This document shows positions 15,799 through 43,600 of a DNA stretch of 64,000 bases, piece after piece. A program made the translations under genes and the position numbers. The notes below the pieces were generated by a model. It was not told the DNA's origin. It was given only the letters and a program-made list of their open reading frames with translations, and searched no databases. The stretch covers positions 1 through 64,000 of the forward strand of contig NW_021832404.1 in NCBI RefSeq assembly GCF_006345805.1. Direction: 5' to 3'. The stretch is from Octopus sinensis. Its lineage: Eukaryota. Every line of letters starts with the position of its first letter. Position 1 is the first letter of the stretch.

Positions 15799-15829
<31 letters not shown>

Positions 15830-17507: not shown

Positions 17508-17589
<82 letters not shown>

Positions 17590-17675: not shown

Positions 17676-17853
17676 AATAATATGTTACAATTATTCAATA
17701 GTCAAGATAAAACTCTGAGTTTCAGATGCCGAAGTGGAAATCCACAACACCATCTCTTCGGTTATAACCAGATAACCGAAGAGATGGTGTTGTGGATTTC
17801 CACTTCGGCATCTGAAACTCAGAGTTTTATCTTGACTATGAATAATTGTAACA

Positions 17854-17860: not shown

Positions 17861-17898
<38 letters not shown>

Positions 17899-18221
17899 TT
17901 ATATATATATATACAGAAAGCGAGAGAGAAAGATAAAGAAAGAAAGAAAGGAAGGAAGGAAGGAAGAAGAAAGAAAGAAAGAGAGGATAGTTATAATCCT
18001 GACAATCGCCTCAGTACATGCTAAATCTTGGCTACGGTAGTATTCCACAATCAAAAGGAGATCCGTAAGATTTCGATTGATATAAGTAAGAACCCTATAC
18101 AACTCTAAAATCCAGTGGGATTAAAATAAACCCACAGAATGAAGAATGTGTGGGGGAGTGTCTATATGTGCGTGTGTGCGTGTGTGTGTATTTATCTATG
18201 TATGTGTGTCATTCCGTTTGT

Positions 18222-18425
18222 GTTAGTCTCTCACCACCGCTTGGCAACCACCGTTGGTTTGTATGCGTCCCCGTTAGTTAGCCGTTTCGGCATAAGAAGC
18301 CGACAGAATAAGTACCAAACCTTAAAAAATATATAAATATTGGGGTCGATTCGACTAAAACCTTCCAAGACAGTGTCCCAGCAAAGCCGCATTCCAATGA
18401 CTGATACACGTAAACCGTAACAGAA
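18222..18425 (+). mobile_element. Diverged SINE 3' half
   Basis: ccgacagaataagtacca...ggggtcgattcgactaaaa...cccagcaaagccgca..aatgactga, as in 5780-5885. Confidence 0.7.
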
Positions 18426-18547
18426 AAGGATGCTAAAAACAGCTGGATTTAACATTTCCAGCTGACACAGGAATAAAATTTGGCCAAAAGAAGTGTTAGT
18501 AATTGATTATTGAACGTTGAAAATCACTCCCCCAGACACAAAACGGT

Positions 18548-19625
18548 CCCTTTATCTCTGTCGGCACCCTCTTTGATCTCTTTCGACACCCGCTTTGATC
18601 TCTTTCGGTACTCCTCTTTCATCTCTGTCGGCACACGCTTTGATCTTTGTCAGTACTCCTCTTCGGTCACTGTCGACACCCTCTTTAATCTCTTTCGGTA
18701 CTCCTCTTTGATCTCTGTCGGCACCCTCTTTGATCTCCTTCGACACCCTCTTTGATCTCTTTCGGCAGCCTCTTTGATCTCTGATCGAAAGAGATCAAAG
18801 AGGGTGTCGACAGACATCAAAGGGGTTGCCGACAGAGACCAAAGAGGAGTACCGAAAAAGATCTCCTTCGGTACTCCTCTTTCATCTCTGCCGACATCAT
18901 CTTTGATCTTTTTCGGCACTCCTCTTTGATCTCTGTCGGCACACTCTTTGATCTATGTCGGCAACTTCTTTGATATTTTTCGGTACTCCTCTTTGATCCC
19001 TGTCGGCCCTTCTTTGATCTCTTTCGGCACCCTCTTTGATCTCTGTCGGCACTCTCTTTGATATCTGTCGGCACCTTCTTTGATCTTTTCGGTACTCCTC
19101 TTTCATCTCTTTCGGCACACTCTTTGATCTATGTCGGCACCCCATTGATCTTTTTCGGTACTCCTCTTTGGTCTCTGTCGGCAAGCTCTTTGATCTCTGT
19201 CGGCACCCTATTTGATCTCTTTCGACAACCTCTTAGATCTCTTTCGGCACTCCTTTTTCATCTCTTTCGGCATTCCTCTTTGATCTCTTTCGGCACCCTA
19301 TTTGATCTCTGTAGGCATCCTCTTTGATCTCTGTCGGTACACTATTTGATCTTTTTCGGTACTCCTCTTTGATCTCTGTCGGCACCGTCTTTGATCTATG
19401 TCGGCCCCTCTTTGATCTATTTCGGCACCTCTTTGATCTCTGTCGGCCCTTATTTAATCTCTTTCGACACCCTCTTTGATCTCTGTCGGCACCCTCTTTG
19501 ATCTCTGTCGGCACATTCTTTGATCTTTTTCGGTACTCCTCATTCATCTCTTTCGGCACTCTTTGATCTCTGTCGGCACCTCTTTGATCTTTTTCGGTAC
19601 TCCTCTTTGGTCTCTGTCGGGACCA
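18548..19625 (+). repeat. Unit A array (tctttgatctctgtcggcacc / tctttgatctctttcggtactcc)
   Basis: ~22-25-bp tandem periodicity; local inversion at ~18786-18863. Confidence 0.95.
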
Positions 19626-19634
19626 TCTTGACAT

Positions 19635-19753
19635 TTGAACCGGTTCGATCAGGTTTGAACCAGTTTGAACCGGTTTGATCCGGTTTGAACCGGTTTGATC
19701 GGTTTGATCCGGTTTGAACCGGTTTGAACCGGATCAAACCGGTTCAAACCGGT
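19635..19753. repeat. First unit B block ((TTGAACCGGT/TTGATCCGGT)n); others at ~19910-20021, 20831-20972, 21220-21391, 22428-22600, 23571-23771, 24751-24932, 25269-25410
   Basis: 10-bp periodicity centred on CCGG. Confidence 0.95.
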
Positions 19754-20175
19754 TCTTTGATCTCTGTCGACACCGTCTTTGATCTCTGACATTCCTGACA
19801 TTCCTGACATTCCTGACATTATAGACATTCCTGACATTCCAGACATTCCTGACATTCCAGACATTCCTGACATTCCAGACATTCCTGACATTCCGGACAT
19901 TCCAGACATACGAACCGGTTCGATCAGGGTTGATCAAATTTGAACCGATTTGATCCGGTTTCAACCGGTTTGAACCGGTTTGAGCCGGTTTGATCCGGTT
20001 TGATTCGGTTTGTACCGGTTTGTCGGTACCGTCTCTGATCTTTGTCGGCACACTCTTTGATCTCTGTCGGAACCGTCTTTGATCTTTGCCGGCACACTAT
20101 TTGATCTCTGACGGCACCGTCTTTGATCTCTGTCGGCACCGTCTTTGATCTCTGTCGGTACCGACTTTGACCTCT

Positions 20176-20670
20176 GACATTCCTGACATTCCAAACATTG
20201 CAGACATTGCAGACATTGCAGACATTGCAGACATTGCAGACATTCCTGACATTCCGAACATTCCAGACATTCCTGACATTCCTGGCATTCGAGACATTCC
20301 TGATATTCCGAACATTCCAGACATTCCTGGCATTCAAGACATTCCAGACATTCCAGACATTCCTGACATTCCAGACATTCCTAACATTCCAGACATTCTA
20401 GACATTCCTGACATTCCCGACATTCCCGACATTCCAAACATTCCTGACATTCCTGACATTCCAGATATTCCTGACATTCCAGATATTACTGACATTCCAG
20501 ATATTCCTGACATTCCAGACATTTCAGATATTCCTGACATTCCAGACATCCCAAACATTCCAGCTATTACTGACATTCCTGACATTTATGATATTCCTGA
20601 AATTCCAGACATTCCAGACATTCCTGAAATTCCTGGCATTCGAGACATTCCTGACATTCCAGACATTCCT
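20176..20670 (+). repeat. Longest unit C block ((GACATTCCW)n); ~12 such blocks between 19788 and 25697
   Basis: 9-bp periodicity, gacattcct/gacattcca. Confidence 0.95.
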
Positions 20671-21712
20671 CGTTTATCTCTGTCGGCACCGTCTTTGATC
20701 TCTGTCGGCACCGTCTTTGATCTCTGACATTCCTGACATTCCAAACATTCATGACATTCCAGACATTCCTGACATTCCAGACATTCCTGACATTCCAGAC
20801 ATTCCAGACATTCCAGACATTCCTGACATTCTGAACCGGTTCGATATGGCTTGATCCAGGTTGAACCGGTTTGATCTGGTTTGATCCGGTTTGAACCGAT
20901 TTGATCTGGTTTGAACCGGTTTGATTCGGTTTGAACCGGTTTGATCCGGTTTGATCCGGTTTGTACCGGTTTATCGGCACCGTCTTTGATCTTTGTCGGC
21001 ACACTCTTTGATCTATGATATTCCTGGCATTCCTTACATTCTAGACATTCCCGACATTCCCGACATTCATGACATTCCAGGCATTCCTGACATTCCAGAC
21101 ATTCCAGACATTGCTAACATTGCTGACATTCCAAACATTCCTGATATTCCAGACATTCCTGACATTCCTGACATTCCAGACATTCCAGACATTCCTGACA
21201 TTCCTGACATTCCTGACATTTGAACCGGTTCGATATGGCTTGATCGAGGTTGAACCGGTTTGATCTGGTTTGATCCGGTTTGAACCGATTTGATCTGGTT
21301 TGAACCGGTTTGATACGGTCTGAACCGGTTTGATCCGGTTTGATCCGGATTCAACCGGTTTGATCCGGTTTGAACCGGTTTAATCTGGTTTATCGGCACC
21401 GACTTTGATCTTTGTCGGCACACACTTTGATCTCTGACATTCCTGACATTCCAGATATTCCTGACATTTCAGACATTCCTGACATTCCTTACATTCCAGA
21501 CATTCCGAACATTCCAGACATTCCTGACATTCCTGATATTCCTGACATTCTAGACATTCCTGACTTTCCAGACATTCCTAACATTCCAGACATTCCTGAC
21601 ATTCAAGACATTCCAGACATTCCTTACATTCCAGACATTCCCGACATTCCACACATTCCTGGCATTCCAGACATTCCTGACATTCCAGATATTCCAGACA
21701 TTCCAGAAATTC

Positions 21713-22207
21713 CTCTTTGCCGAAACAGAGATGAAAGAGAAGTACCGACAGAGATCAAAGAAGGTGCCGACAGAGATCAAAGAGGGTGCCGAAAGAGATC
21801 AAATAAGGGCCGACAGAGATCAAAGAGGTTGCCGACAGAGACAAAAGAGGAGTACCGAAAAAGATCAAAGAGGGTACCGACAGAGATCAAAGAGGGTGCC
21901 GACAGAGATCAAAGAGGAGTACCGACAGAGATCAAAGAAGGTGCCGACAGAGATCAAAGAGGGTGCCCACAGAGATCAAAGAAGGTGCCGAAAGTGATCA
22001 AAGAGGAGTACCGAAAAAGATCAAAGAGGAATACCAAAAGAGATCAAAGAGGGTACCGACAGAGATCAAAGAAGGTACGAAAGAGATCAAAGAGGACTAC
22101 CGAAAGAGATCAAATAATGTGCCGACAGAGATTAAAGAGGGTGCCGAAAGAGATCAAAGAAGGGCCGACAGAGATCAAAGAGGAGTACCGAAAATGATCA
22201 AAGCTGG
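21713..22207 (-). repeat. Inverted unit A block (repeated at ~22778-23180 and ~23957-24358)
   Basis: gccgacagagatcaaagagggt is the reverse complement of unit A. Confidence 0.95.
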
Positions 22208-25200
22208 TGTCTCTGTCGGCACCTCTGATCTCTGACATTCCTCACATTCCAAACATTCTTGACATTCCAGGCATTCTTGACATTCCAGACAATCCTGACA
22301 TTACAGACATTCCTGGCTTTCCAGACATTCCTGACATTCCAGACATTCCTGACATTCCAAACATTCCTGACATTCCAGACATTCCTGACATTCCAGACAA
22401 TCCTGACATTCCAGACATTCCTAACATTTGAACCGGTTCGATATGGCTTGATCCATGTTGAACCGGTTTGATCTGGTTTGATCCGGTTTGAACCGATTTG
22501 ATCTGGTTTGAACCGGTTTGATACGGTCTGAACCGGTTTGATCCGGTTTGATCCGGTTTCAACCGGTTTGATCCGGTTTGAACCGGTTTAATCTGGTTTA
22601 TCGGCACCGTCTTTGATCTTTGTTGGCACACTCTTTGATCTCTGACATTCCTGACATTCCAGACATTCCTGACATTCCTGACATTCTAGACATTCCTGAC
22701 ATTCCAGACATTCCGAACATTCCAGACATTCCTGGCATTCCAGACATTCCTGACATTCCAGATATTCCAGACATTCCTCTTTGCCGACAGAGATCAAAGA
22801 GGAGTACCGACAGAGATCAAAGAAGGTGCCGACAGAGATCAAAGAGGGTCCCCATAGAGATCAAAGAGGGTGCCGACAGAGATCAAAGAGGAGTACCGAC
22901 AGAGATCAAAGAAGGTGCCGACAAAGATCAAAGAGGTTGCCCACAGAGATCAAAGAAGGTGCCGAAAGTGATCAAAGAGGAGTTCCGAAAAAGATCGAAG
23001 AGGAGTACCGAAAGAGATCAAAGAGGGTACCGACAGAGATCAAAGAAGGTACCGAAAGAGATCAAAGAGGACTACCGAAAGAGATCAAAGAATGTGCCGA
23101 CAGAGATTAAAGAGGGTGCCGAAAGAGATCAAAGAAGGGCCGACAGAGGTCAAAGAGGAGTACCGAAAATGATCAAAGCTGGTGTCTCTGTCGGCACCTC
23201 TGATCTCTGACATTCCTCACATTATAAACATTCTTGACATTACAGGCATTCCTGACATTCCAGCCATTCCTGACATTACAGACATTCCTGACATTCCAGA
23301 CATTCCTGACATTCCAGACATTCCTGACATTCCGAAAATTCCAGACATTCCTGACATTACTGGCTTCCAGACATTCCTGACATTCCAGACATTCCTGACA
23401 TTCCTGACATTCCTGACATTCCAGTCATTCCTGACATTCCACACATTCCTGACATTCCAGACATTTCAGATATTACTGACATTCCAGACATTCCAGAAAT
23501 CCTGATATTCCTGACATTCCTGACGTTCCAAACATTCCAGACATTCCTGACATCCAGACATTCCTGACATTTGAAACGGTTCGATATGGCTTGATCCAGT
23601 TGAACCGGTTTGATCTGGTTTGATCCGGTTTGAACCGATTTGATCTGGTTTGAACCGGTTTGATACGGTTTGAACCGTTTTGATCCGGTTTGATCCGTTT
23701 CAACCGGTTTGATCCGGTTTGATCCGTTTTCAACCGGTTTGATCCGGTTTGAACCGGTTTAATCTGGTTTATCGGCACCGTCTTTGATCTTTGTTGGCAC
23801 ACTCTTTGATCTCTGACATTCCTGACATTCCAGACATTCCTGACATTCCTGACATTCTAGACATTCCTGACATTCCTGACATCCAGACATTCCGAACATT
23901 CCAGACATTCCTGGCATTCCAGACATTCCTGACATTCCGAAAATTCCAGACATTCCTCTTTGCCGACAGAGATCAAAGAGGAGTACCGACAGAGATCAAA
24001 GAAGGTGCCGACAGAGATCAAAGAGGGTCCCCATAGAGATCAAAGAGGGTGCCCACAGAGATCAAAGAGGAGTACCGACAGAGATCAAAGAAGGTGCCGA
24101 CAAAGATCAAAGAGGTTGCCCACAGAGATCAAAGAAGGTGCCGAAAGTGATCAAAGAGGAGTTCCGAAAAAGATCGAAGAGGAGTACCGAAAGAGATCAA
24201 AGAGGGTACCGACAGAGATCAAAGAGGTACCGAAAGAGATCAAAGAGGACTACCGAAAGAGATCAAAGAATGTGCCGACAGAGATTAAAGAGGGTGCCGA
24301 AAGAGATCAAAGAAGGGCCGACAGAGATCAAAGAGGAGTACCGAAAATGATCAAAGCTGGTGTCTCTGTCGGCACCTCTGATCTCTGACATTCCTCACAT
24401 TATAAACATTCTTGACATTACAGGCATTCCTGACATTCCAGCCATTCCTGACATTACAGACATTCCTGACATTCCAGACATTCCTGACATTCCAGACATT
24501 CCTGACATTCCGAAAATTCCAGACATTCCTGACATTACTGGCTTTCCAGACATTCCTGACATTCCAGACATTCCTGACATTCCTGACATTCCTGACATTC
24601 CAGTCATTCCTGACATTCCACACATTCCTGACATTCCAGACATTTCAGATATTACTGACATTCCAGACATTCCAGAAATCCTGATATTCCTGACATTCCT
24701 GACGTTCCAAACATTCCAGACATTCCTGACATTCCTGACATTCCTGACATTTGAACCGGTTCGATATGGCTTGATCCAGGTTGAACCGGTTTGATCTGGT
24801 TTGATCCGGTTTGAACCGATTTGATCTGGTTTGAACCGGTTTGATACGGTTTGAACCGGTTTGATCCGGTTTGATCCGTTTCAACCGGTTTGATCCGGTT
24901 TCAACCGGTTTGATCCGGTTTAATCTGGTTTATCGGCACCGTCTTTGATCTTTGTCGGCACAAACGTTGATCTCTGACATTTCTGACATTCCAGACATTC
25001 CTGACATTTCAGACATTCCTGACATTCCAGACATTCCTTACATTCCAGACATTCCCGACATTCAAGACATTCCAGACATTCCAGACATTCCTGACATTCC
25101 TGACATTCCAAACATTCCTGACATTCTAGTCATTCCTGACATTCCACACATTCCTGACATTCCAGACATTTCAGATATTACTGACATTCCAGACATTTTA

Positions 25201-25697
25201 GAAATCCTGACATTCCTGACATTCCAAACATTCCAGACATTCCTGACATTCCTGACATTCCTGACATTTGAACCGGTTCGTTATGGCTTGATCCAGGTTG
25301 AACCGGTTTGATCTGGTTTGATCCGGTTTGAACCGATTTGATCTGGTTTGAACCGGCTTGATCCGGTTTGATCCGGTTTCAACCGGTTTGATCCGGTTTA
25401 ATCCGGTTTATCAGCACCGTCTTTGATCTTTGTCGGCACAAACTTTGATCTCTGACATTTCTGACATTCCAGACATTCCTGACATTTCAGACATTCCTGA
25501 CATTCCAGACATTCCTTACATTCCAGACATTCCCGACATTCCCGACATTCCCGACATTCCAGACATTCCTGACATTCCAGACATTCCTGACATTCCTGAC
25601 ATTCCAAACATTCCTGATATTCTAGACATTCCTGATATTCCAGACATTCCTGACATTCCAGATATTCCTGACATTCCAGACATTCCAGAAATCCTGA

Positions 25698-28600
25698 ACA
25701 TTTCAGGGAGGAGGATTTGAAGGTGAAGGTAAGGAATGGGAAGAAGGAATATTTAACATTCCAGGGAGGGGGATTTGAAGGTAAAGGGGAGGAATGGGAA
25801 GAAGGAATATTGATCATTCCAGAGAGAGGGATTTGAAGGTAAAGTGGAGGAATGGGAAGAAGGAATATTGAACATTCCAGAGAGGGGGATTTGAAGGTAA
25901 AGGGGAGGAAAGGGAAGAAGGAATATTGAACATTGCATAGGGGGGGTTTGAAGGTGAAGGGGAGGAATGGGAAGAAGGAATACGGAACATTCCAGAGAGG
26001 GAGATTTCAAGGTAAATTGAGGAATTGGAAGGAGGAATATTGAACATTCCAGAGAAAGGGATTTAAAGAGAAAGGGGAGGAATGGGAAGAAGGAATATTG
26101 AACATTCCAGAGAGGGGGATTTGAAGGTAAAGGGGAGGAATGGGAAGAAGGAATATTGAACATTCCAGGGAGGAGGATTTGATGGTGAAGTTAAGGAATG
26201 GGAAGAAGGATTATTGAACATTCCAGAGAGGGGGATTTGAAGGGAAGGGGGAGGAGTGGGAAGATGGAATATTAAACATTCCAGAGAGGGGGATTTGAAG
26301 GTGAAGGGGAGGAAGGGGAGGAAGGAACATTGAACATTGCAGAGAGGGGGATTTGAAGATGAAGGGGAGGAATGGGAAGAAGGAATATTGAACATTCCAG
26401 AGAGAGGGATTTGAAGGTAAAGGGGAGGAATGGGAAGAAGGAATATTGAACATTCCAGAGAGGGGGATTTAAAGGTGAAAGGGAGGAAGGGGTGGAAGGA
26501 ATATTGAACATTCCAGAGAGGGGGATTTTGAAGGGGAAGGGGAGGAAGGGGAGGAAGGGATACTGAACATTCCAGAGAGGGGGATTTGAAAGTGATCGTG
26601 AGGAAGGGGAGGAAGGAATATTGAACTTCCATCCGGGAGGGGGATTTGAAGGTGAAGGGGAGGAAGTGGAGAATGGAATACTTTACATTCCAGAGAGGGG
26701 GAATTGAAGGTAAAGGGGAGGAATGGGAAGAAGAGAATATTTAACCTTCAAGAGAGGGGGATTTGAAGGTGAAGGTAAGGAATGGGAGAAAGGAATATTG
26801 AACATTCCAGAGAGAGGGATTTGAAGGTAAAGTGGAGGAATGGGAAGAAGGAATATTGAACATTCCAAGAGGGGGATTTTGAAGGGGAAGGGGAGGAAGG
26901 GGAGGAAGGGATACTGAACATTCCAGAGAGGGGGATTTGAAAGTGATCGTGAGGAAGGGGAGGAAGGAATATTGAACATTCCAGGGAGGGGGATTTGAAG
27001 GTGAAGGGGAGGAAGTGGAGAATGGAATACTTTACATTCCAGAGAGGGGGAATTGAAGGTAAAGGGGAGGAATGGGAAGAAGGAATATTTAACCTTCAAG
27101 AGAGGGGGATTTGAAGGTGAAGGTAAGGAATGGGAGAAAGGAATATTGAACATTCGAGAGAGGGATTTGAAGGTAAAGGTGAGGAATGGAAGAAGGAATA
27201 TTGAACATTCCAGAGAGGGGGATTTGAAGGTAAAGGGGAGGAAGGGAAGAAGGAATATTGAACATTGCATAGGGGGTTTGAAGTGAAGGGGAGGAATGGG
27301 AAGAAGGAATACGGAACATTCCAGAGAGGGAGATTTCAAGGTAAATTGAGGAATTGGAAGGAGGAATATTGAACATTTCAGAGAAAGGGACTTAAATGGA
27401 AAGGGGAGGAATAGGAAGAAGGAATATTGAACATTCCAGAGAGGGGGATTTGAAGGTAAAGGGGAGGAATGGGAAGAAGGAATATTGAACATTCCAGGGA
27501 GGAGGATTTGATGGTGAAGTTAAGGAATGGGAAGAAGGATTATTGAACATTCCAGAGAGGGGGATTTTGAAGGAAGGGGGAGGAGTGGGAAGATGGAATA
27601 TTAAACATTCCAGAGAGGGGGATTTGAAGGTGAAGGGGAGGAAGGAACATTGAACATTGCAGAGAGGGGGATTTGAAGATGAAGGGGAGGAATGGAAGAA
27701 GGAATATGAACATTCCAGAGAGAGGGATTTGAAGGTAAAGGGGAGGAATGGGAAGAAGGAATATTGAACATTCCAGAGAGGGGGATTTAAAGGTGAAAGG
27801 GAGGAAGGGGTGGAAGGAATATTGAACATTCCAGAGAGGGGGATTTTGAAGGGGAAGGGGAGGAAGGGGAGGAAGGGATACTGAACATTCCAGAGAGGGG
27901 GATTTGAAGGTGATCGTGAGGAAGGGGAGGAAGGAATATTGAACATTCCAGGGAGGGGGATTTGAAGGTGAAGGGGAGGAAGTGGAGAATGGAATACTTT
28001 ACATTCCAGAGAGGGGGAATTGAAGGTAAAGGGGAGGAATGGGAAGAAGGAATATTTAACCTTCAAGAGAGGGGGATTTGAAGGTGAAGGTAAGGAATGG
28101 GAGAAAGGAATATTGAACATTACAGAAAAGGGGATTTGAAGGTAAAGGGAAGGAATGGGAAGAAGGAATATTGAACATTCCAGTGAGGGGATTTAAAGGT
28201 AAAGGGGTGGAATGGGAAGAAGGAATATTGAATATTCCAGGGAGGAGGATTTGAAGGTGAAGGTAAGGAATGGGAAGAAGGAATATTGAACATTACAGAG
28301 AAGGGGATTTGAAGGTAAAGGGGAGGAATGGGAAGAAGGAATATTGAACATTCCAGAGAGGGGGATTTGAAGGTAATGGGGAGGAATGGGAAGAAGGAAT
28401 ATTTAACCTTTCAAAGAGTGGGATTTGAAGGTGAAGGTAAGGAATGGGAAGAAGGAATATTGAACATTCCAGGGAGGGGGATTTGAAGGTGATTGGGAGG
28501 AATGGGAAGAAGGAATATTGAACATTCCAGAGAGAGGGATTTGCAGGTAAAGTGGAGGAATGGGAAGAAGGAATATTGAACATTCCAGAGAGGGGATTTG

Positions 28601-31600
28601 AAGGTAAAGGGGAGGAATGGGAAGAAGGAATATTGAACATTCCATAGGGGGGATTTGAAGGTGAAGTGGAGGAATGGCAAGAAGTAATATTGAACATTTC
28701 AGAGAGGGGGATTTAAAGGTAAAGGGGAGGAATGGGAATAAGGAATATTCAACATTCCACAGAAGGGGATTTGAAGGTAAAGGGGAGGAATGGGGAGGAG
28801 GAATATTGAACATTCCAGAGAGGGAGATTTGAAGGTAAAGGCGAGGAATGGGAAGAAGGAATATTGAACATTCCAGAGAGGGGGATTTAAAGGGGAAGGT
28901 GAGAAATGGGAAGAAGGAATATTGAACATTCCAGAGAGGGAGATTTGAAGGTAAAGGGGAGGAATGGGAAGAAGGAATATTGAACATTCCAGAGAGGGGG
29001 ATTTGAAGGCGAAGGGGAGGAAGTGGAGAATGGAATACTGAACATTCCAGAGAGGGGGAATTGAAGGTAAATAGGAGGAATGCGAAAAAGGAATATTGAA
29101 CATTACAGAGAAGGGGATTTGAAGGTGAATTGGAGGTAGGGGTGGAAGGAATATTGAACATTCCAGAGAGGGGGATTTGAAGATGAAGGGGAGGAAGGGG
29201 AGGAAGGAATATTGAACATTCCACTGGGGGGATTTGAAGGTGAAGGTGAGGAATGGGAAAAGTAATATTAAACATTCCAGAGACGGAGATTTCAAGGTAA
29301 AGGGGATGAGTGGGAAGAAGGAATATTGAACATTCCAGAGAGGGGGATTTGAAGGTGAAAGGGATGAAGGGGAGGAAGGAATATTGAACGTTCCAGAGAG
29401 GGAGATTTGAAGGTGAAGGGGAGGAAGGGGAGGAAGGAATATTGAACATTCCAGAGAGTGGTATTTGAAAGTGGATAGGAGGATGCAGAGGAGGGAATAC
29501 TGAACATTCCAGAGAGGGGGATTTGAAGGTGAAGGGGAGGAAGGGGAGGAAGGAATATTGAACATACCAGAGAGGGGGATATGAAGGTGAAGGGGAGGAA
29601 GGGGGAAGGAATATTGAACATTCCACAGAGGGGGATTTGAAGGTAAATGGGAAGAATGGGAAGAAGGAATATTTAACATTCCAGGGAGAGGGATTTGAAG
29701 GTAAAGTGGAGGAATGGGAAGAAGGAATATTGAAGATTACAGAGAGGAGTATTTGAAGGTGAAGGGAAGGAATGGGAAGAAGGAATATTGAACATTACAG
29801 AGAAGGGGATTTGAAGGTAAAGGGGAGGAATGGGAAAAAGGAATATTCAACATTCCACAGAGGGGGATTTGTAGGTGAAGGGGAGAAAGGGGAGGAAGGA
29901 AGACTGAACATTCCAGAGAGGAGGATTTGAAGGTAAAGTAAGGAATGGGAAGAAGGAATATCTAACATTCCAGAGAGGGGGATTTGAAGGTGAAGGTAAG
30001 GAATGGGAGAAAGGAATATTGAACATTCCAGGGAGTGGGATTTCAAGGTAAAGGGGAGGAATGGGAAGAAGGAATATTGAACATTCCAGAGAGGGGGATT
30101 TAAAGGTAAATGGGTGGAATGGGAAGAAGGAATTTTGAACATTCCAGAGAAAGGGATTTGAAGGTAAAGAGGAGGAATGGGAAGAAGGAATATTTAACCT
30201 TTCAAAGAGGGGGATATGAAGGCGAAGGTAAGGAATGGGAAGGAGGAATATTGTACATTCCATAGAGGGGGATTTGAAGGTAAAGGGGAGGAATGGGAAG
30301 AAGTAATATTGAAAATTGCAGAGAGGGGGATTTGAAGGTAAAGGGGAGGAATGGGAAGAAGGTATATTGAACATTCCAGAGAGGGTGATTTGAAGGTAAA
30401 GGGGAGGAATGGGAAGAAGGAATATTGAACATTCCACGGAGGAGGATTTGAAGGTGAAGGTAAGGAATGGGAAGAAGGAAAATTGAACATTACAGAGAAG
30501 GGGATTTGAAGGTAAATGGGAGGAATGGGAATAAGGAATATTCAACATTCCACAGAAGGGGATTTGAAAGTGAAGGTGAGGAATGGGAAGAAGGAATATT
30601 GAACATTCCAGAGAAGGGGATTTGAAGGTAAATGGGAGGAATGGGAATAAGGAATATTCAACATTCCACAGAAGGGGATTTGAAGGTGAAGGTGAGGAAT
30701 GGGAAGAAGGAATATTGAACATTCCAGAGAGGGGGATTTGAAGGTGAAGGGGATGAATGTGAAGAAGGAATATTCAACATTCCAGAGAGGGGGATTTGAA
30801 GGTGAAGGGGAGGAAGAGGAGGAAGGAACATTGAACATTGCAGAGAGTGGGATTTGAAGATGAAGGGGAGGAAGGGGAGGAATGAATATTGAACATTCCA
30901 GAGAGGGGTATTTGAAGGTGAAGGGAGGAATGGAAGAAGGATATTCAACATTCCAGAGTGTAGTATGTGAAGGTAAAGGGGAGGAATGGAAAAGGAATAT
31001 TGAACATTCCAGAGAGGGGGATTTGAAGGTGAAGGGGAAGAAGGGAGGAAGGGATACTGAACATTCCAGAGAGGGGATTTGAAGGTGAATTGGAGGTAGG
31101 GGTGGAAGGAATATTGAACATTCCAGAGAGGGGGATTTGAAGATGAAGGGGAGGAAGGGGAGGAAGGAATATTGAACATTCCAGAGAGTGGTATTTGAAG
31201 GTAAACGGGAGGAATGGGAACAAGAAGTATTGAACATAACAGGAGGGGGATTTGAAGGTAAAGGGGAGGAATGGGAAGAAGGAATATTTAACGTTCCAGA
31301 GAGGGGGATTTAAGGTAAAAGGGTGGAATGTGAAGAAGGAATATTGAACATTCCAGAGAAAGGGATTTGAAGGTAAGGGGAGGAATGGGAGAAGGAATAT
31401 TGAACATTACAGGGAGGAGGATTTGAAGGTGAAGGGAAGGAATGGGTAGAAGGAATATTGAACATTCAGAGAAGGGGATTTGAAGGTAAAGGGGAGGAAT
31501 GGGAAGAAGGAATATTCAACATTCCACAGAGGGAGACTTGAAGGTAAATGGGAGGAATGGGAAGAAGGAATATTTAACCTTTCAATGAGGTGGATTTGAA

Positions 31601-34600
31601 GGTGAAGGTAAGGAATGGGAAGAAGGAATATTGAACATGCCAGAGAGGGGGATTTGAAGGTAAAGGGGAGGAATGGGAAGAAGTAATATTGAACATTCCA
31701 GAGAGGGCGATTTGAAGGTAAAGAGGAGGAAGGGGAAGAAGGAATTTTGAACATTCCAGAGGGGGATTTGAAGGTAAAGGGGAGGAATGGGAAGAAGGAA
31801 TATTGAACATTCCATGGAGGAGGATTTGAAGGTGAAGGTAAGGAATGGGAAGAGGTATATTGAACATTACAGAGAAATGGATTTGAAGGTAATGGGAGGA
31901 ATGGGAATAAGGAATATTCAACATTCCACAGAAGGTGATTTGAAGGTAAGGGGAGGAAGGGGAATAAGGAATATTGAACATTCCATAGAGATGGATTTGA
32001 AGGTAAAGGGTAGGAATGGGAAGAAGGAATACTGAACATTCCAGAGAGGGATATTTGAAGGTAAAGGGGAAGAAGGGGAAGAAGAATATTGAACATTCCA
32101 GAGAGGGGATTTGAAGGTAAATGGGAGGAATGGGAAGAAGGAATATTAAACATTCCAGAGAGGGGGATTTGAAGGTGATGGGTAGGAAGGGGAGGAAGGA
32201 ACATGAACATTGCAGAGAGTGGGATTTGGAGGTGAAGGGGAGGAAGGGGAGGAATGAATATTGAACAATCCAGATAGGGGGATTTGAAGGTGAAGGGAGG
32301 AATGGAAGAAGGAATATTCAACATTCCAGAGAGTAGTTGTGAAGGTAAAGGGGAAGAATGGGAAGAAGGAATATTGAACATTACAGAGAGGGGATTTGAA
32401 GGTGAATTGGAGGAAGAGGAGGAAGGAATATTGAACATTCCAGAGAGGGGGATTTGAAGGTGAAGGGGAGGAAGGAATATTGAACATTCCAGAGAGGGGG
32501 ATTTGAAGGTGAAGGGGAGCAAAGGAGGAAGGAATATTGAACATTCCAGAGAGGGGGATTTGAAGATGAAGGGGAGGAAGGGGAGAAGGAATATTGAACA
32601 TTCCAGAGAGGGGGATTTGAAGGTGAAGGGAGGAAGAAATATTGAACATTGTAGAGAGGGGGATATGAAGGTGAAGGGGAGGAAGGGGAGGAAGGAATAT
32701 TGAACATTTCAGAGAGGTGGATTTGAAGTTGAAGGGGAGGAGTGGAGGAAGGAATATTGAACATTCCAGAGAGTGGATTTGAAGGTGAAGGGGAGGAGAG
32801 GAGAATGAATACTGAACATTCCAGAGATGGGGATTTCAAGGTGAATTGGAGTATGGGTGGAAGGAATATTGAACATTCCAGAGAGGGGATTTGAAGATGA
32901 AGGGGAGGAAGGGGAGGAAGGAATATTGAACATTCCACTGGGGGGATTTGAGGTGAAGGGAGGAATGGGAAAAGGAATATTGAACATTCCAGAGACGGAG
33001 ATTTCAAGGTAAAGGGGATGAGTGGGAAAAGGAATATTGAACATTCCAGAGAGGGGGATTTGAAGGTGAAAGGGATGAAGGGGAGAAGGAATATTGAACA
33101 TTCCAGAGAGGAGATTTGAAGGTGAAGGGGAGGAAGGGGGAGGGATATTGAAAATTCCAGAGAGTGGTATTTGAAAGTGAAGGGGAGGAAGGGGAGGAAG
33201 GAATATTGAACATACCAGAGAGGGGGATATGAAGGTGAAGGGGAGGAAGGGGTGGAAGGAATATTGAACATTCCAGAGAGTGGTATTTGAAAGTGAAGGG
33301 GAGGAAGGGGAGAAAGGAATACTGAACATTCCATAGAGGGGGATTTGAAGGTAAAGGGGAGGAATGGGATGGAGGAATATTGAACATTCCAGAGATGGAG
33401 ATTTAAAGGTAAAGGGGTGGAATGGGTAGAAGGAGTATTGAACATTCCAGAGAGAGGGATTTGAAGGTAATGGGGAGGAATGGGAAGAAGGAATATTGAT
33501 CATTCCAGGGAGGAGGATTTGAAGGTGAAGAGAAGGAATGGGAAGAAGGAATATTGAACATTACAGAGAAGGGGATTTGAAGGTATAGGGGAGGAAGAGA
33601 AAGAAGGAATATTCAACATTCCACAGAGGGGGATTTGAAGGTAAACGGGAGGAATGGGAACAAGAAGTATTGAAACATATGTGGAGGGGATTTAAGGTAA
33701 AGGGGAGGGTGGGAAGAAGGAATATTGAAAAGAGAAGGATTTAAAGTAAAAGGGTGGAATGGGAAGAGGAATATTCCAGAGAAAGGGATTTGAAGGTAAG
33801 GGGAAGATGGGAAGAAGGAATATTTGACCATTACAGGGAGGAGGATTTGAAGGTGAAGGGAAGGAATGGGAAGAAGGAATATTGAACATTACATAGAAGG
33901 GATTTGATGGTAAAGGGGAGGAATGGGAAGAAGGAATATTCAACATTCCACAGAGGGAGACTTGAAGGTAAATGGGAGGAATGGGAAGAAGGAATATTTA
34001 ACCTTTCAAGAGGTGGATTTGAAGGTGAAGTAAGGAATGGGAAGAAGGAATATTGAACATTCCAGAGAGGGGGATTTGAAGGTAAAGGGGAGGAATGGGA
34101 TGAAGTAATATTGAACATTCCAGAGAGAGGTGATTTGAAGGTAAAGAGGAGGAATTGGAAGAAGGAATATTGAACATTCCAGAGAGGTGATTTGAAGGCA
34201 AAGGGGAGGAATGGGAAGAAGGAATATTGAACATTCCATGGAGGAGGATGTGAAGGTGAAGGTAAGGAATGGAGGAAGGAATATTGAACATTACAGAGAA
34301 AGGGATTTGAAGGTAAATGGGAGGAAGGGAATAAAGAATATTCAACATTCCAAGAAGGGGGATTTGAAGGTAGGGGAGGAAGGGGAAGAAGGAATATTGA
34401 ACATTCCATAGAGATGTATTTGAAGGTAAAGGGGAGGAATGGGAAGAAGGAATATTGCATCCAGAGGGGATATTTGAAGGTAAAGGGGAGGAGGGGAAGA
34501 AGAATATTGAACATTCCAGAGAGGTGGATTTGAAGGTAAATGGGAGGAATGGAAGAAGGAATATTAACATTCCAGAGAGGGGGATTTGAAGGTGAAGGCT

Positions 34601-37600
34601 AGGAAGGGGAGGAAGGAACATTGAACATTGCAGAGAGTGGGATTTGAGATGAAGGGGAGGAAGGGGAGGAATGAATATTGAACATTCGAGAGAGTAGTAT
34701 GTGAAGTAAGGTGGAAGAATGGGAAGAAGGAATATGAACATTACAGAGAGGGGATTTGAAGGTGAAGGGGAGGAAGAGGAGAAGGAATATTGAACATTCA
34801 AGAGAGGGGTAATTTGAATGTGAAGGGGAGGAAGGAATATTGAACATTCCAGAGAGAGGGAGTTGAAGGTGAAGGGGAGAAGGGGAGGAAAGGAATATTG
34901 AACATTCCTAGAGAGGGGGATTTGAAGGTGAAGGGAGGAGGAGGGAGGAAGGAATATTGAACATTCCAGAGAGGTGGATTTGAAGGTGAAGGGGCGGAAG
35001 GGAGAAAGGAATATTGAACATTACAAAGAGGGGGATTCAAGGTGAAGGGGAGGAAGGGTGGATGAATATTGAACATTCCAGAGAGGGGATTTGAAGGTGA
35101 AGGGGAGGAATGGGAGGAAGAATATTGAACATTCCAGAGAGGGGGATTTTAAGGTTTAAAGGGGAGGAATGGAAGAAGGAATAATGAACATTCCAGAGAG
35201 GGATTTTAAGGTTAAGGGGAGGAATGGGAAGAAGGAATATTGAACATTCCAGAGAGGGGTGATTTGAAGGTGAAGGGGAGGAAGTTGAGGAAGAAATATT
35301 AAACATTCCAGAGAGGGGGATTTGAAGGTGAAGGTATGGAATGGGAAGAAGGAATAATGAACATTCCAGAGAGGGGGATATGAAGGTGAAGGAGAGGAAG
35401 GGGAGAAAGGAATACTGAACATTACAAAGATGGGGATTTCAAGGTGAAGGGGAGGAAGAGGAGGATGGAATAATGAAGATTCCAGAGAGGGGGATTTAAT
35501 GGTGAAGGGGAGGAATGGGAAGAAGGAATATTGAACATTCCAGAGAGGGGGATTTGAAAGTAAATCGGAGGAATGGGGAAGAAGGAATATTGAACATTCC
35601 AGAGAGGGGGATTTGAAGGTAAAGGGGAGGAAGGGAAGAAGGAAATATTGAAAATTCCAGCGGGGGGATTTGAAGGTAAATGGGATGAATGGGAGAAGGA
35701 ATATTAACATTCCAGAGAGGGGGATTTGAAGGTGAAGAGAGCATGGGAAGAAGCAATATTGAAGATTCCAGAGATGGGATTTGAAGGTGAAAGGGAGAAA
35801 GGGGAGAAATGAATATTGAACATTTCAGAGAGGAGGATTTTGAAGGTAAAGGGGGAAATGGGAAGAAAGAATATTGAACATTCCAGAGATGGGATTGAAG
35901 GTGAAGTGAGGAAGGAGAGGAAGGGATATCTGACATTCCAAGAGGGGGATTTGAAGGTAAGGGGAGGAAGGGCAGGAAGGAATATTGACATGCCAGAGAG
36001 GGGGATTTGAGTGAAGGGGAGAAGTGGAGAAAGGAATATTGAATATTTGCAGAGAGGGGGATTTGAAGGTAAATGAGGAATGGGAAGAAGGAATACTTAT
36101 CCTTCCAGAAGGGGATTTGAAGGTGAAGGTAGGAATGGGAAAAGGAATATTGAACATTCCAGGATTGGGATTTCAAGGTAAGGGGAGGAATGGGAAGAAG
36201 GAACATTGAACATTCCAGAGAGAGAGATTTCAAGGTAAAGGGGAAGAATGTGAAGAAGGAATATTGAGCATTCCAGAGAGAGGGATTTAAAGGTAAAGGG
36301 GAGGAATTGGAAGAAGGAACATTGAACATTACTGAGAAGGGGTTTTGAAGGTAAAGGCGAGGAATGGGAAGAAGGAATATTGAACATTCCAGGGAGGAGG
36401 ATTTGAAGGTAAATGGGAGGAATGGGAAGAAGGAATATTGAACATTCCAGGGAGAGATTTGAAGGTGAAGGTAAGGAATGGGAATAAGGAATATTGAACA
36501 TTACTGAGAAGGGGATTTGAAGTAAAGGGGAGGAATGGGAAGAAGGAATATTGAACATTCCATACAGTGGGATTTGAAGGTGAAGGGTAGGAATGAAGAA
36601 TGAATATTGAACATTCCATAGAGGGGGATGTGAAGTTGAAGGGGAGGATTGGAAGAAGGAATATTGAACATTCCAGAGAGGGGGATTTGAAGGTAAAGGT
36701 GAGGAAGGAGAGAAGGAATATTGAACATTCCAGAGAGGGGGATTTGAAGGTGAAGGGGAGGAAAAGGAGGAAGGAATATTAACATTCCAGAGGGGGGATT
36801 TGTGAGAAAAAAGAAAGAAGGGAAAAGGGGAGGAAGTAATATTGAAACATTCCAGAGAAGGGATATGAAGGTAAAGGGGAGGAAGGGAGGAAGGAATATT
36901 GAACATTCCAAGTGGGGGATTTGAAGGTGAAGGGGAGGAAGGGGAGGAAGGATACTGAACATTCCAGAGAGGGTGGATTTGAAGGTAAAGGGGAGGAATG
37001 GGAGAAGGAATATTGAACATTCCAGAGAGTGGGATTTGACGGTAAGGGGAGGAATGGGAGAAGGAATATTCAACATTCCAGAGAGGGGGATGTGAAGTTA
37101 AGGGGAGGAATGGGAAGAAGGAATATTGAACATTCCAGAGAGGGGGATTGAAGGTAAAGAGAGCAATGGGAAGAAGCATATTGAAGATTCCAGAGAGGGT
37201 GATTTGAAGGTGAAAGGGAGGAAGGGTGAAAGGAATATTGAACATTTCAGAGAGGGGGATTTGAAGGTAAAGGGGGGAAAATGGGAAGAAGGAATATTGA
37301 ACATTCTAGAGATGGGGATTTGAAAGTGAAGGGAGAGGAAGGGGATGAAGGAATATTGAACATTCAGAGAGGGGGATTTGAAGGTGAAGGGGAGGAAGGA
37401 GAGAAGGATCTGTGAACATTCCAGAGAGGGGGATTTGAAGGTAAAGGGACGAATGGGATGAAGGAATATTGAACATTAAGAGAGGGGGATTTGAAGGTGA
37501 AGGGGAGGAATGGAGGAAGGAATATTGAACATTCCAGAGAGGGGGATTTGAAAGTGAAAGGGAGGAAGTGCAGAAAGGAATACTGAACATTGCAGAGAGG

Positions 37601-40600
37601 GGGATTTTAAGGTAAATGGAGGAATGGGAAGAAGGAATATTTACCTTCCAGAGAGGGGGATTTGAAGGTGAAGGTAAGGAATGGGAAGAAGAATATTGAA
37701 CATTCCATAGAGAGAGATTTCAAGGTAAAGGGAGGAATGGGAAGAAGGAATATTGAACATTCCAGAGAGGGGGATTTAAGGTAAGGGGAGGAATGGGAAG
37801 AAGGAACATTGAACATTACAGAGAGGGGATTTGAAGGTAAGGGGAGGAAGGGAAGAAGGAATATTGAACATTCCAGGAGGAGGATTTGAAGGTGAAGGTA
37901 AGGAATTGGAAGAAGGAATATTGAACATTACAGAGAAGGGGATTTTGAAGGTAAAGGGAGGAATGGGAAGAGGAATATTGAACATTCCAGAGAGGGGATT
38001 TGAAGGTAAGGTGAGGAATTGGGAATGTGGGAATATTGAACATTCCAGAGAGGGGATTTGAGGGTGAAGGGAAGAAGAGGTGAGGAAGGGAATATGAACA
38101 TTTCAGAGGGGGGTTTGAAGATGAAGGGGAGGAAGTGGAGAAGGAATATTGAACATTCAAGAGAGGGGATTTGAAGGTGAAGTGGGAGGAAGGAGGAAGG
38201 AATATTGAACATTCCAGAGAGGGGGATTTGAAGGTGAGGGGAGGAAGGGGAGGAAGGATATTGAACATTCCAGAGAGGGGAGTTGAAGTTGAAGGTGAGA
38301 AGGGGAGGAAGGGGACAAAGGATACTGAACATTCCAGAGAGGGGATTTGAAGGTGAAGGGGAGGAAGGGAGGAAGGATATTTGAACATTCCAGAGAGGGG
38401 GATTTGAAGGTGAGGGAGAGGAATTGTAGGAAGGAATACTGAACATTCCAGAGAAGGGAATTTGAAGGTGAAGGGGAGGAATGGGGAGGAAGGAATATTG
38501 AACATTCCAGAGAGGATGATTTTAAGGTAAGGGGAGGAATGGGAAGAAGGAATATTGAACATTCAGAGAGGGGATTTGAAGGTGAAGGGGAGGAATGGGA
38601 TAAGGAATATTGAACATTCCGAGAGGGGGAATTTAAGGTGAAGGGGAGGAATCTGAAAAAGGAATATTGAACATTCCAGAGAGGGGAATTTAAAGGTAAG
38701 GTAAGGAATGGGAAGAAGGAATATTGAACATTCCAGAGAGGGGGATTTTAAGGTAAGGTAAGAAATGGAGGAAGGTAAGGAATGGTGAAGGTAAGGAATG
38801 GTGAAGGTGAAGGTAAGGAATATTGAACATTCCAGAGAAGGATTTGAGGTGAAGGGAGGAATGTGAAGAAGGAAATATTGACATTCCAGAGAGGGGGATT
38901 TGAAGATGAAGGGGAGGAGGGGAGGAAGGAATATTGAACATTCCACTGGGGATTTTGAACGTGAAGGGAGAATGGAGAAAGGAATATTGAACATTCCAGA
39001 GACGGAGATTTCAAGGTAAGGGATGAGTGGGAAGAAGGAATATTGAAACATTCCAGAGAGGGGGATTTTGAAGGTGAAAAGGATGAGGGAGGAAGGAATA
39101 TTGAACATTCCAGAGAGGGAGATTTGAAGGTGAAGGGGAGGAAGGGGAGGAAGGAATATTGAACATTCCAGAGAGTGGTATTTGAAAGTGAAGGGGAGGA
39201 AGGGGAGGAAGGAATATTGAACATACCAGAGAGGGGGATATGAAGGTGAAGGGGGAGGAGGGTGAAGGAATATTGAACATTCCAGAGAGTGGTATTTGAA
39301 AGTGAAGGGGAGGAAGGGGAGAAAGGAATACTGAACATTCCATAGAGGGGGATTTGAAGGTAAAGGGGAGGAATGGGATGGAGGAATATTGAACATTCCA
39401 GAGATGGAGATTAAAGGTAAAGGGGTGGAATGGGTAGAAGGAGTATTGAACATTCCAGAGAGAGGGATTTGAAGGTAATGGGGAGGAATGGGAAGAAGGA
39501 ATATTGATCATTCCAGGGAGGAGGATTTGAAGGTGAAGAGAAGGAATGGGAAGAAGGAATATTGAACATTACAGAGAAGGGGATTTGAAGGTAAAGGGGA
39601 GGAAGAGAAAGAAGGAATATTCAACATTCCACAGAGGGGGATTTGAAGGTAAACGGGAGGAATGGGAACAAGAAGTATTGAACATATGTGGGAGGGGGAT
39701 TTTAAGGTAAAGGGGAGGAGTGGGAAGAAGGAATATTGAAAATTCCAGAGAAGGGGATTTAAAGGTAAAAGGGTGCAATGGGAAGAAGGAATATTGAACA
39801 TTCCAGAGAAAGGGAATTGAAGGTAAAGGGGAAGAATGGGAAGAAGGAATATTGAACATTACAGGGAGGAGGATTTGAAGGTGAAGGGAAGGAATGGGAA
39901 GAAGGAATATTGAACATTACAGAGAAGGGGATTTGATGGTAAAGGGGAGGAATGGGAAGAAGGAATATTCAACATTCCACAGAGGGAGACTTGAAGGTAA
40001 ATGGGAGGAATGGGAAGAAGGAATATTTAACCTTTCAAAGAGGTGGATTTGAAGGTGAAGGTAAGGAATGGGAAGAAGGAATATTGAACATTCCAGAGAG
40101 GGGGATTTGAAGGTAAAGGGGAGGAATGGGATGAAGTAATATTGAACATTCCAGAGAGGGTGATTTGAAGGTAAAGAGGAGGAATGGGAAGAAGGAATAT
40201 TGAACATTCCAGAGAGGGTGATTTGAAGGCAAAGGGGAGGAATGGGAAGAAGGAATATTGAACATTCCATGGAGGAGGATGTGAAGGTGAAGGTAAGGAA
40301 TGGGAGGAAGGAATATTGAACATTACAGAGAAGGGGATTTGAAGGTAAATGGGAGGAATGGGAATAAAGAATATTCAACATTCCACAGAAGGGGATTTGA
40401 AGGTAAGGGGAGGAAGGGGAAGAAGGAATATTGAACATTCCATAGAGATGTATTTGAAGGTAAAGGGGAGGAATGGGAAGAAGGAATATTGAACAATCCA
40501 GAGAGGGATATTTGAAGGTAAAGGGGAGGAGGGGAAGAAGGAATATTGAACATTCCAGAGAGGGGGATTTGAAGGTAAATGGGAGGAATGGGAAGAAGGA

Positions 40601-43600
40601 ATATTAAACATTCCAGAGAGGGGGATTTGAAGGTGAAGGCTAGGAAGGGGAGGAAGGAACATTGAACATTGCAGAGAGTGGGATTTGAAGATGAAGGGGA
40701 GGAAGGGGAGGAATGAATATTGAACATTCGAGAGAGTATTATGTGAAGGTAAAGGGAAGAATGGGAAGAAGGAATATTGAACATTACAGAGAGAGGGGGA
40801 TTTGAAGGTGAAGGGGAGGAGGGAGAAAGGAATATATGAACATTCAGAGAGGGGTTTGAAGGTGAAGGGGAGGAAGGAATATTGAACATTCCAGAGAGAG
40901 GGAGTTGAAGGTGAAGGGGAGGAATGGGAGGAAGCAATATTGAACATTCTAGAGAGGGGGATTTGAAGGTGAAGGGGAGGAAGGGGAGGAAGGAATATTG
41001 AACATTCCAGAGGAGGTGGATTTGAAGGTGAAGGGCGGAAGGGGAGAAAGGAATATTGAACATTACAAAGATGGGGATTTCAAGGTGAAGGGGAGGAAGG
41101 GATGGATGGAATATTGAACATTCCAGAGAGGGGGATTTGAAGGTGAAGGGGAGGAATGGCAGGAAGGAATATTGAACATTCCAGAGAGGGGGATTTTAAG
41201 GTTAAGGGGAGGAATGGGAAGAAGGAATAATGAACATTCCAGAGAGAGGGATTTTAAGGTTAAGGGGAGGAATGGGAAGAAGGAATATTGAACATTCCAG
41301 AGGGGGGGATTTGAAGGTGAAGGGGAGGAAGTTGAGGAAGAAATATTAAACATTCCAGAGAGGGGGATTTGAAGGTGAAGGTATGGAATGGGAAGAAGGA
41401 ATAATGAACATTCCAGAGAGGGGATATGAAGGTGAAGGAGAGGAAGGGAGAAGGAATACTGAACATTACAAAGATGGGGATTTCAAGGTGAAGGGAGAAG
41501 AGGAGGATGGAATAATTGAAGATTCCAGAGAGGGGGATTTAATGGTGAAGGGAGGAATGGAGAAGGAATATTGAACATTCCAGAGAGGGGGATTTGAAAG
41601 TAAATCGGAGGAGGAAAAGGAATATTGAACATTCAGAGAGGGGATTTGAAGGTAAAGGGGAGGAATGGGAAGAAGGAATATTGAAAATTCCAGCGAGGGG
41701 ATGTGAAGGTAATGGGATGAATGGGAAGAAGGAATATTTAACATTCCAGAGAGGGGGATTTGAAGGTGAAAGAGAGCAATGGGAAGAAGCAATATTGAAG
41801 ATTCCAGAGATGGGGATTTGAAGGTGAAAGGGAGAAAGGGGAGAAATGAATATTGAACATTTCAGAGAGGGGGATTTGAAGGTAAAGGGGAGAAATGGGA
41901 AGAAGGAATATTGAACATTCCAGAGATGGGATTGAAGGTGAAGGTGAGGAAGGAGAGGAAGGGATACTGAACATTCCACAGAGGGGGATTTGAAGGTGAA
42001 GGGGAGGAAGGGCAGGAAGGAATATTGAACATGCCAGAGAGGGGGATTTGAAGGTGAAGGGGAGGAAGTGGAGAAAGGAATACTGAATATTGCAGAGAGG
42101 GGGATTTGAAGGTAAATGGAGGAATGGGAAGAAGGAATACTTATCCTTCCAGAGAGGGGGATTTGAAGGTGAAGGTAAGGAATGGGAAAAAGGAATATTG
42201 AACATTACAGGGAGTGGGATTTCAAGGTAAAGGGAGGAATGGGAAGAAGGAACATTGAACATTCCAGAGAGAGAGATTTCAAGGTAAAGGGGAGAATGTG
42301 AAGAAGGAATATTGAACATTCCATAGAGAGGGATTTAAAGGTAAAGGGGAGGAATTGGAAAAGGAACATTGAACATTACTGAGAGGGGGTTTTGAAGGTA
42401 AAGGCGAGGAATGGAAGAAGGAATATTGAACATTCCAGGAGGAGGATTTGAAGGTAAATGGGAGGAATGGGAAGAAGGAATATTGAACATTCCAGGGAGG
42501 AGGATTTGAAGGTGAAGGTAAGGAATGGGAAGAAGGAATATTGAACATTACTGAGAAGGGGATTTGAAGGTAAAGGGGAGGAATGGGAAGAAGGAATATT
42601 GAACATTCCATACAGTGGGATTTGAAGGTGAAGGGGAGGAATATGAAGAATGAATATTGAACATTCCATAGAGGGGGATGTGAAGTTGAAGGGGAGGATT
42701 GTGACGAAGGAATATTGAACATTCCAGAGAGGGGGATTTGAAGGTAAAGGTGAGGAAGGAGAGGAAGGAATATTGAACATTCCAGAGAGGGGGATTTGAA
42801 GGTGAAGGGGAGGAAAAGGAGGAAGGAATATTAAACATTCCAGAGAGGGGGATTTGAAGATGAAGGGGAGGAAGGGGAGGAAGTAATATTGAACATTCCA
42901 GAGGAAGGGATATGAAGGTAAAGGGGAGGAAGGGGAGGAAGGAATATTGAACATTCCAGAGTGGGGGATTTGAATGTGAAGGGGAGGAAGGGGAGAAAGG
43001 AATACTGAACATTCCAGAGAGGGGGATTTGAAGGTAAAGGGGAGGAATGGGAAGAAGGAATATTGAACATTCCAGAGAGTGTGATTTGACGGTAAAGGGG
43101 AGGAATGGGAAGAAGGAATATTCAACATTCCACAGAGGGGGATGTGAAGTTAAAGGGGAGGAATGGGAAGAAGGAATATTGAACATTCCAGAGAGGGGGA
43201 TTTGAAGGTAAAAGAGAGCAATGGGAAGAAGCAATATTGAAGATTCCAGAGAGGGTGATTTGAAGGTGAAAGGGAGGAAGGGGTGAAAGGAATATTGAAC
43301 ATTTCAGAGAGGGGGATTTGAAGGTAAAGGGGAGAAATGGGAAGAAGGAATATTGAACATTCTAGAGATGGGGATTTGAAAGTGAAGGAGAGGAAGGGGA
43401 TGAAGGAATATTGAACATTCCAGAGAGGGGGATTTGAAGGTGAAGGGGAGGAAGGAGAGAAAGGGATACTGAACATTCCAGAGAGGGGGATTTGAAGGTA
43501 AAAGGGACGAAGGGGATGAAGGAATATTGAACATTACAGAGAGGGGGATTTGAAGGTGAAGGGGAGGAAGGGGAGGAAGGAATATTGAACATTCCAGAGA

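Follow-up and report, generated by a model that had tools for sequence, protein, structure and literature searches.

A 9-bp minisatellite with TEAD double-motif geometry is one module of a dispersed, motif-bearing repeat family in Octopus sinensis

Are satellites shaped by the proteins that bind them? A mosaic family of minisatellites in Octopus sinensis would allow a direct test of this question. It was examined here from a 64,000-nucleotide stretch of contig NW_021832404.1 (assembly GCF_006345805.1, positions 1 to 64,000 of the forward strand; the window). The first-pass annotation had assigned the whole of 19788-25697 to a 9-bp repeat, (GACATTCCW)n or unit C, and had read it as a presumably convergent platform for TEAD, with CATTCC-N3-CATTCC sites every 9 bp. 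The repeat is real, but its bounds are partly wrong. Twelve blocks of C fill only 2956 of the 5910 bp (50%), the remainder being 1097 bp of a 10-bp unit B and 1857 bp of a 22-bp unit A or linker, with three inverted A blocks. That annotation also overlooked the wider setting: C belongs, as a single module, to a family of motif-bearing minisatellites dispersed in the genome, and this multi-motif family is a more interesting object than a TEAD platform. We propose, as a plausible account that falls just short of probable, that unequal exchange and template switching amplified factor-binding minisatellites and joined them to one another, and that binding may have favored which units spread.

Blocks within 19788-25697 (window coordinates):
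19788..19909, plus strand: unit C block 1, (GACATTCCW)n, with TEAD double-motif geometry
19910..20176, plus strand: B block, then A linker
20177..20831, plus strand: unit C blocks 2-3, with a short A insert at ~20673-20725
20832..21713, plus strand: two B-A-C modules, C at 21016-21220 and 21436-21713
21714..22203, minus strand: inverted A block
22204..22780, plus strand: A-C-B-A-C module, C at 22232-22428 and 22642-22778
22781..23575: higher-order copy 1, with inverted A block, A linker and C block 23207-23571
23576..23959, plus strand: B-A-C module, C at 23813-23957
23960..24753: higher-order copy 2, with inverted A block, A linker and C block 24385-24751
24754..25697, plus strand: two B-A-C modules, 95% alike, C at 24974-25268 and 25452-25697

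Unit C and the TEAD double motif

Within 19788-25697, CATTCC occurs 236 times on the plus strand and GGAATG not once. The spacing is 9 bp in 166 of the 235 gaps between successive CATTCC sites, and the longest unbroken run holds 14 sites; the comparison region at 1-18400 of the window has 6 CATTCC and no double sites. Exact GACATTCCW is found in 179 of 313 tiled C copies of the window, with A and T alternating at W in 199 of 264 adjacent pairs, which gives an 18-bp higher order. The published TEAD single site is RMATTCCWD, with strict spacing and a cooperativity of ~4-fold (Dalal et al., PMC12008814; this and the other papers are cited from the portions of their text that were available). It is matched by 209 of the ~328 C units in the window, where 168 units begin a double, and by 1746 of 2610 units (67%) when loci are pooled, where 1326 (51%) begin a perfect double. 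The two-letter position of unit C coincides with the W of this motif. YAP1 peaks show an enrichment of same-direction CATTCC doubles spaced by 3 bp, and both halves are needed for activity in a reporter (Stein et al., PMC4546604). The available portions of these two papers thus confirm the cooperative binding to 3-nt-spaced direct repeats on which the TEAD interpretation had drawn, and the period of C equals the published cooperative spacing. It should be mentioned that any 6-mer repeated with a 9-bp period necessarily shows N3 spacing; the match therefore amounts to one coincidence, namely the period of 9, and not to hundreds.

The canonical TEAD of the host lies on C3, and its two TEA exons agree with human PDB chains in 38/38 and 38/39 residues; given this equality, human reagents should work. 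Unit C thus combines paired same-direction cores, a 3-bp spacer and RMATTCCWD matches with a host TEA domain whose DNA and dimer surfaces are conserved. The motif match together with the near-identical domain makes TEAD binding in vitro very likely. Since every neighboring pair of C units has the double-motif geometry, TEAD would likely coat C cooperatively where chromatin is open. For binding in vivo we lean slightly toward occupancy.

Two divergent TEA-domain genes were also noted, at C8845:75689-75925 and C7755:804922-805029, with the recognition helix unchanged and the first exon altered. Their introns are only ~30-36 bases long and their contigs are repeat-poor with 29% GC; possibly they represent parasite DNA in the assembly. 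No family arrays lie within 40 kb around either copy.

A coding repeat was also considered, (Asp-Ile-Pro)n on the plus strand or (Gly-Met-Ser)n on the minus strand with W at the wobble position. W is indeed the third position in both frames, and in the Asp-Ile-Pro frame silent changes make up 31 of 104 single-base variants versus 10 of 52 possible changes. However, the frames are broken by the 10- and 22-bp units, by 1-bp indels and by inversions, and the longest stop-to-stop frame is 262 amino acids. A coding repeat is therefore rejected as extremely unlikely.

A dispersed mosaic of motif-bearing units

The order A-C-B recurs in the window with identical junction forms (10 A-to-C, 6 C-to-B and 7 B-to-A), and one A-to-C junction is present in 19 exact copies on 7 contigs. 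The two higher-order copies, 22781-23575 and 23960-24753, share 789 of 792 aligned bases (99.6%). Past satellite D, the right arm of the contig, taken as its reverse complement, matches 21800-22330 with 95.6% identity. Such a mosaic anatomy is the pattern expected from unequal exchange and template switching.

In a search of the 2.7-Gb assembly, four perfect C units occur 407 times versus 0 for the reversed pattern, and triple sites 1345 times versus 14. The mosaic family accounts for all 100 triple sites among the matches listed (of 1345). No independent origin of a 9-bp TEAD repeat is seen among those 100, which argues for one origin. A TEAD repeat with an 8-bp period gives 21 sites versus 3 for its control. 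The total of unit C is ~33 kb, extrapolated from 1150 of the 1345 triple sites (3133 units) in an assembly that may collapse arrays. The arrays are spread over many chromosomes and clustered on C13. Of the repeat's words, shares of 0.34 and 0.22 are present in sequencing runs under two other species labels, a word share that is not unit-resolved, and no RNA runs are among those listed with these words; a further 16 rows with shares below 0.2 do not count as evidence.

Three further arrays lie in the contig beside the C blocks:
18550..19629, plus strand: unit A array, 22/23 bp, CTTTGATCTCTGTCGGCACCCT, the mosaic's left arm, outside 19788-25697
19634..19754, plus strand: unit B array, 10 bp, TTTGAWCCGG, with Grainyhead AACCGGTT and CP2 CNRG-N6-CNRG
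25695..64000, plus strand, continuing in the contig to 78503: satellite D, 58-bp unit, 52.8 kb in the contig

Units beyond C, catalogued as those abutting A, B or C arrays, include matches to TCF, Grainyhead/CP2, MEF2, POU, STAT and ETS motifs. Unit A has a TCF-type CTTTGWWS core with a Helper-like RCCG on the opposite strand; it contains CTTTGATC plus this Helper-like element, as the motifs are worded in the available text of PMC4154663. The ~110 B units of the window carry 33 AACCGGTT sites and 53 CNRG-N6-CNRG sites (motifs from PMC5829564). On its minus strand unit B also contains the 13-letter Tcfcp2l1 motif, with 0.03 matches expected; this motif was absent from the literature search terms and was met in Table 3 of PMC6006848. 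The MEF2 consensus CTAWWWWTAG, which is bound by flatworm Mef2 (PMC3250504), is found in two units at 0.42 and 0.58 sites per unit, and TATGCAAAT in two units at 0.60 and 0.74. A 52-bp unit carries TTCCNGGAA and CMGGAAGT, overlapping STAT-type and ETS-type sites, at 0.5-0.9 per unit. STAT3, ELF1 and Oct4 strings are given in PMC6006848, a paper found via those motifs. No literature on octopus or cephalopod satellites with factor sites was found, most subscription journals lying outside the search.

Satellite D has a single TEAD-type site, ACATTCCAG, per unit (639 RMATTCCWD on the plus strand, no doubles), and its 69-bp variant contains GACATTCCAGA; it likely carries a C-derived piece. Beside the TEAD-type site it repeats GAAnnTTC 664 times, which we take to be half of a heat-shock element. 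Its 24-mers occur 1146 times exactly genome-wide, with arrays on C3, C4, C7, C11 and C13. Elsewhere in the window, a 70-bp repeat (2.7 copies, 93%) lies at 14718-14905, and a short open frame at 10762-11087 resembles the end of a retroelement open reading frame.

Other loci show related arrangements. POU-type, MEF2-type, A and C arrays form a large palindromic arrangement at C9081:1-70000 and C13:56.60-56.63 Mb. In the mosaics at C8:1049676-1052824 and C7:37994096-37998268, the 52-bp STAT/ETS-type unit, a 34-bp unit and an 85-bp octamer unit adjoin C, and at the former the 52-bp and 34-bp arrays stand on both sides of C. At C11:12862442-12878605 a 13-bp unit, TGGCTATTTGGGT, forms ~1.9-kb blocks of alternating direction and holds no panel motif. 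An internal, degenerate telomere-type (CCTAAC)n run lies between A and C arrays at C8:18717613-18718622.

Another possibility is that the arrays belong to a single transposon family, as its subterminal repeats or its cargo, and that its transposase binds them or they serve it as an enhancer. Inverted arms surround satellite D and are found again on C9081, a Tigger-like miniature inverted-repeat transposable element (MITE) adjoins the right arm, and one flank is common to two loci. Against this, a comparison of 70 unmasked flanks from 54 arrays shows no sequence common to more than two or three of them. The shared flank that was followed up is part of a common repeat; 10 of 12 fetched copies lack an array, and its other part does not lie beyond the array. 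With no shared element ends around the arrays, a carrier transposon is rejected as very unlikely. The MITE itself (contig 83180-83790, minus strand), which we assume to be of a Tigger/pogo-like family, has a remnant helix-turn-helix frame, is ~92% alike across many copies and is cut by an A array. Insertion into TA runs by a retro-mechanism is also unsupported; few array edges, and not those of most of 15 short C loci, lie in TA runs.

Core variation and the weight of coincidence

Variants were tallied per position over 20 of 26 loci and 2615 units, leaving out 6 loci with <8 C units; C9506 and C8469 were excluded as apparent duplicates of C17:14.5 Mb. The first-pass annotation had proposed such a tally, and the core leans conserved over the 20 loci though not within the window alone. 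Core CC varies by 7.7% versus 11.6% outside the core (p 0.059), and ATT by 2.8% versus 4.5% (p 0.022). After scaling with neutral rates from 30 copies of a dispersed MITE (CpG 5.5%, other C 1.8%, A/T 1.1%), the ATTCC core has 0.58-0.69 of the non-core variation, and it lies below the non-core in 15 of 20 loci. Of the 5-letter blocks given by the 9 rotations, this core shows the lowest variation (p 0.11; free permutation 0.008). Since the arrays are highly redundant, weak per-site selection is expected either way; we regard the signal of purifying selection on the core as no more than suggestive. Strings of C that we take to carry Smad and TALE names, CAGAC and TGACA, were considered as well; the corresponding letters, WGACA, are more variable than the core, and a Smad or TALE reading is rejected.

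On a panel of 7 motifs, 9 of 18 linked rows match (0.22 expected by shuffling; C and A each counted twice) and 1 of 17 unlinked rows, that one being a piece of a family unit. Among the units found after the idea was written down, one matched the five motifs named up to that point, one added STAT and ETS, and most gave nothing firm. The motif content of the family is, in our estimate, probably not accidental.

Several points weigh against the proposal that binding favored the spread of units. The TEAD binding of C is itself predicted from sequence, and the drive step is what we infer beyond it. The panel was picked post hoc, after the units had been seen, and the other half of the linked rows match nothing in it. 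The exact Tcfcp2l1 13-mer is present in only 7% of B units. With a library of 100-300 motifs, sizes that we assumed, the probability that a random 9-bp unit matches at least one of them is 0.2-0.7. The units are apparently related by descent, which makes their matches partly dependent on one another. ATT hardly varies inside the window (0.6-1.6%), but C7 (10.5%) and C8 (8.0%) are as variable as G1 (11.8%) and C3 (8.3%). The neutral counts are only 2-16 per triplet. The core signal goes no further than suggestive because of its p of 0.11 among rotations and the shared ancestry of the loci. Over six families, core conservation has a raw p of 0.021, which rises to 0.26-0.47 once CpG scaling and a rotation null are applied; the cores of B, the MEF2-type and the POU-type units are not conserved.

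These points bear on a neutral origin, in which microsatellites and junctions gave rise to C and its neighbors, ordinary recombination spread them, and their resemblance to motifs is coincidental. The automatic N3 spacing, the concentration of variation within the window on G/C bases, the non-significance of family-wide core conservation and the one origin of the 100 listed triple sites all fit such an account. At three loci C adjoins pentamer runs, (TGACR)n and (CATTC)n, the overlap of which gives the C unit; they are a candidate for its simple origin. The chance of some match per unit ranges from 0.01 (B) to 0.9 (A) under the same assumed library sizes, so that the argument from coincidence is strong only jointly. 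However, a neutral origin leaves to chance the exact matches of adjoining units to several unrelated published motifs and the frequent overlap of STAT-type and ETS-type sites in the 52-bp unit. It would also have to accommodate a core that is the least variable part of C, and periods of both C and B that equal published cooperative spacings. We consider it rather unlikely.

Selection by the host is a further possibility, the arrays being repressed or signal-driven enhancers or factor sinks comparable to human satellite 3 (HSat3) and to MORC3-restricted repeats. The latter, IFNB1-MRE for example, are characterized as a class by MORC-dependent closure, with enhancer activity upon release (PMC13373173). 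The array sizes, from tens to ~1000 sites, span those of the MORC3-restricted repeats (up to 61 motifs, in the same source), and two double motifs suffice to drive a reporter (PMC4546604). Core conservation is suggested for C and, at rank 2 of 22, for the Helper element of unit A. However, flanks differ among loci, the arrays cut through other repeats, no long coding frame was seen at 1-18500 of the window, and the total of C is small. According to the available text, most MORC3-restricted repeats are without effect on their neighbors. Nor are the arrays at the protocadherin cluster, a link that is rejected; 105 domain matches are mostly on C14, a grouping on a single chromosome that agrees with the protocadherin expansion of cephalopods, and the mosaic cluster is on C13. 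Host selection thus appears quite unlikely.

Proposed mechanism and comparison with known systems

The proposed amplification of factor-binding units starts from what was observed: the unit, its motif match, the near-identical TEA domain, re-used junctions, near-identical copies, inversions, dispersal and flanks with no shared carrier end. Once C is accessible, TEAD would bind it cooperatively, and bound arrays would stay open or gather with other bound arrays. Being bound and open, they could be favored as donors or acceptors when breaks are repaired, which would bring them together and let them spread; no host benefit at the locus would be required. Frequent use of bound arrays as repair templates would explain both the stitching of units and the abundance of factor sites. 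In a more speculative version, to which we give somewhat less credence, the family would be a mobile minisatellite library, selected as in a natural SELEX (systematic evolution of ligands by exponential enrichment) to bind nuclear effectors of various signaling pathways, namely TEAD, TCF, Grainyhead/CP2, MEF2, POU, STAT and ETS. Unit length would be tuned to cooperative spacing, and recombination between bound arrays would stitch and spread them. If the mechanism holds, transcription-factor binding would be a force that chooses which repeats expand, and cephalopod genomes would contain dispersed, ready-made signal-response cassettes. The family supplies several factor-unit pairs, with motif-free units as controls.

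We have compared unit C and its family to known repeats and enhancers. HSat3 recruits TEAD/YAP, as the first-pass annotation had stated (10.1101/2024.10.22.616524, available in part); a platform of its type would be marked by TEAD/YAP foci that influence ribosomal DNA transcription. Both HSat3 and C are tandem repeats dense in the TEAD core GGAATG/CATTCC. HSat3, however, repeats every 5 bp, forms megabase arrays that contain millions of motifs and has demonstrated binding, whereas C has a period of 9, is found in short dispersed blocks and is known from sequence. At ~33 kb against megabases, it is no HSat3-type platform, and that term overstated its scale. In the HSat3 study, 42 of 828 motifs were enriched tenfold and TEAD4 alone scored in both the motif and the chromatin immunoprecipitation screens (10.1101/2024.10.22.616524); motifs are thus no guarantee of binding. 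The TEAD double motif (PMC4546604, PMC12008814) shares core, orientation and spacing with C, but is described in these sources as single pairs in enhancers, while C has up to 14 perfect sites in a row within a satellite. The TCF HMG-Helper (PMC4154663), Grainyhead/CP2 (PMC5829564) and MEF2 (PMC3250504) strings are present in A, B and two MEF2-type units, respectively. In the available text of the literature searched, such sites are known from scattered enhancer sites or synthetic reporters, not from linked natural satellites.

The MORC3-restricted repeats (PMC13373173) and C are alike in being kilobase-scale tandem repeats that hold tens of copies of one factor's motif and arose through repeat expansion. 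The former are described as unrelated human loci with one motif each, whereas the mosaic family joins units for many factors head to tail and is mobile. If bound, C may work like HSat3 or like the homotypic MORC3-restricted repeats. C differs from both in that its period matches the cooperative spacing and that it is linked, within a single family, to units for many other factors.

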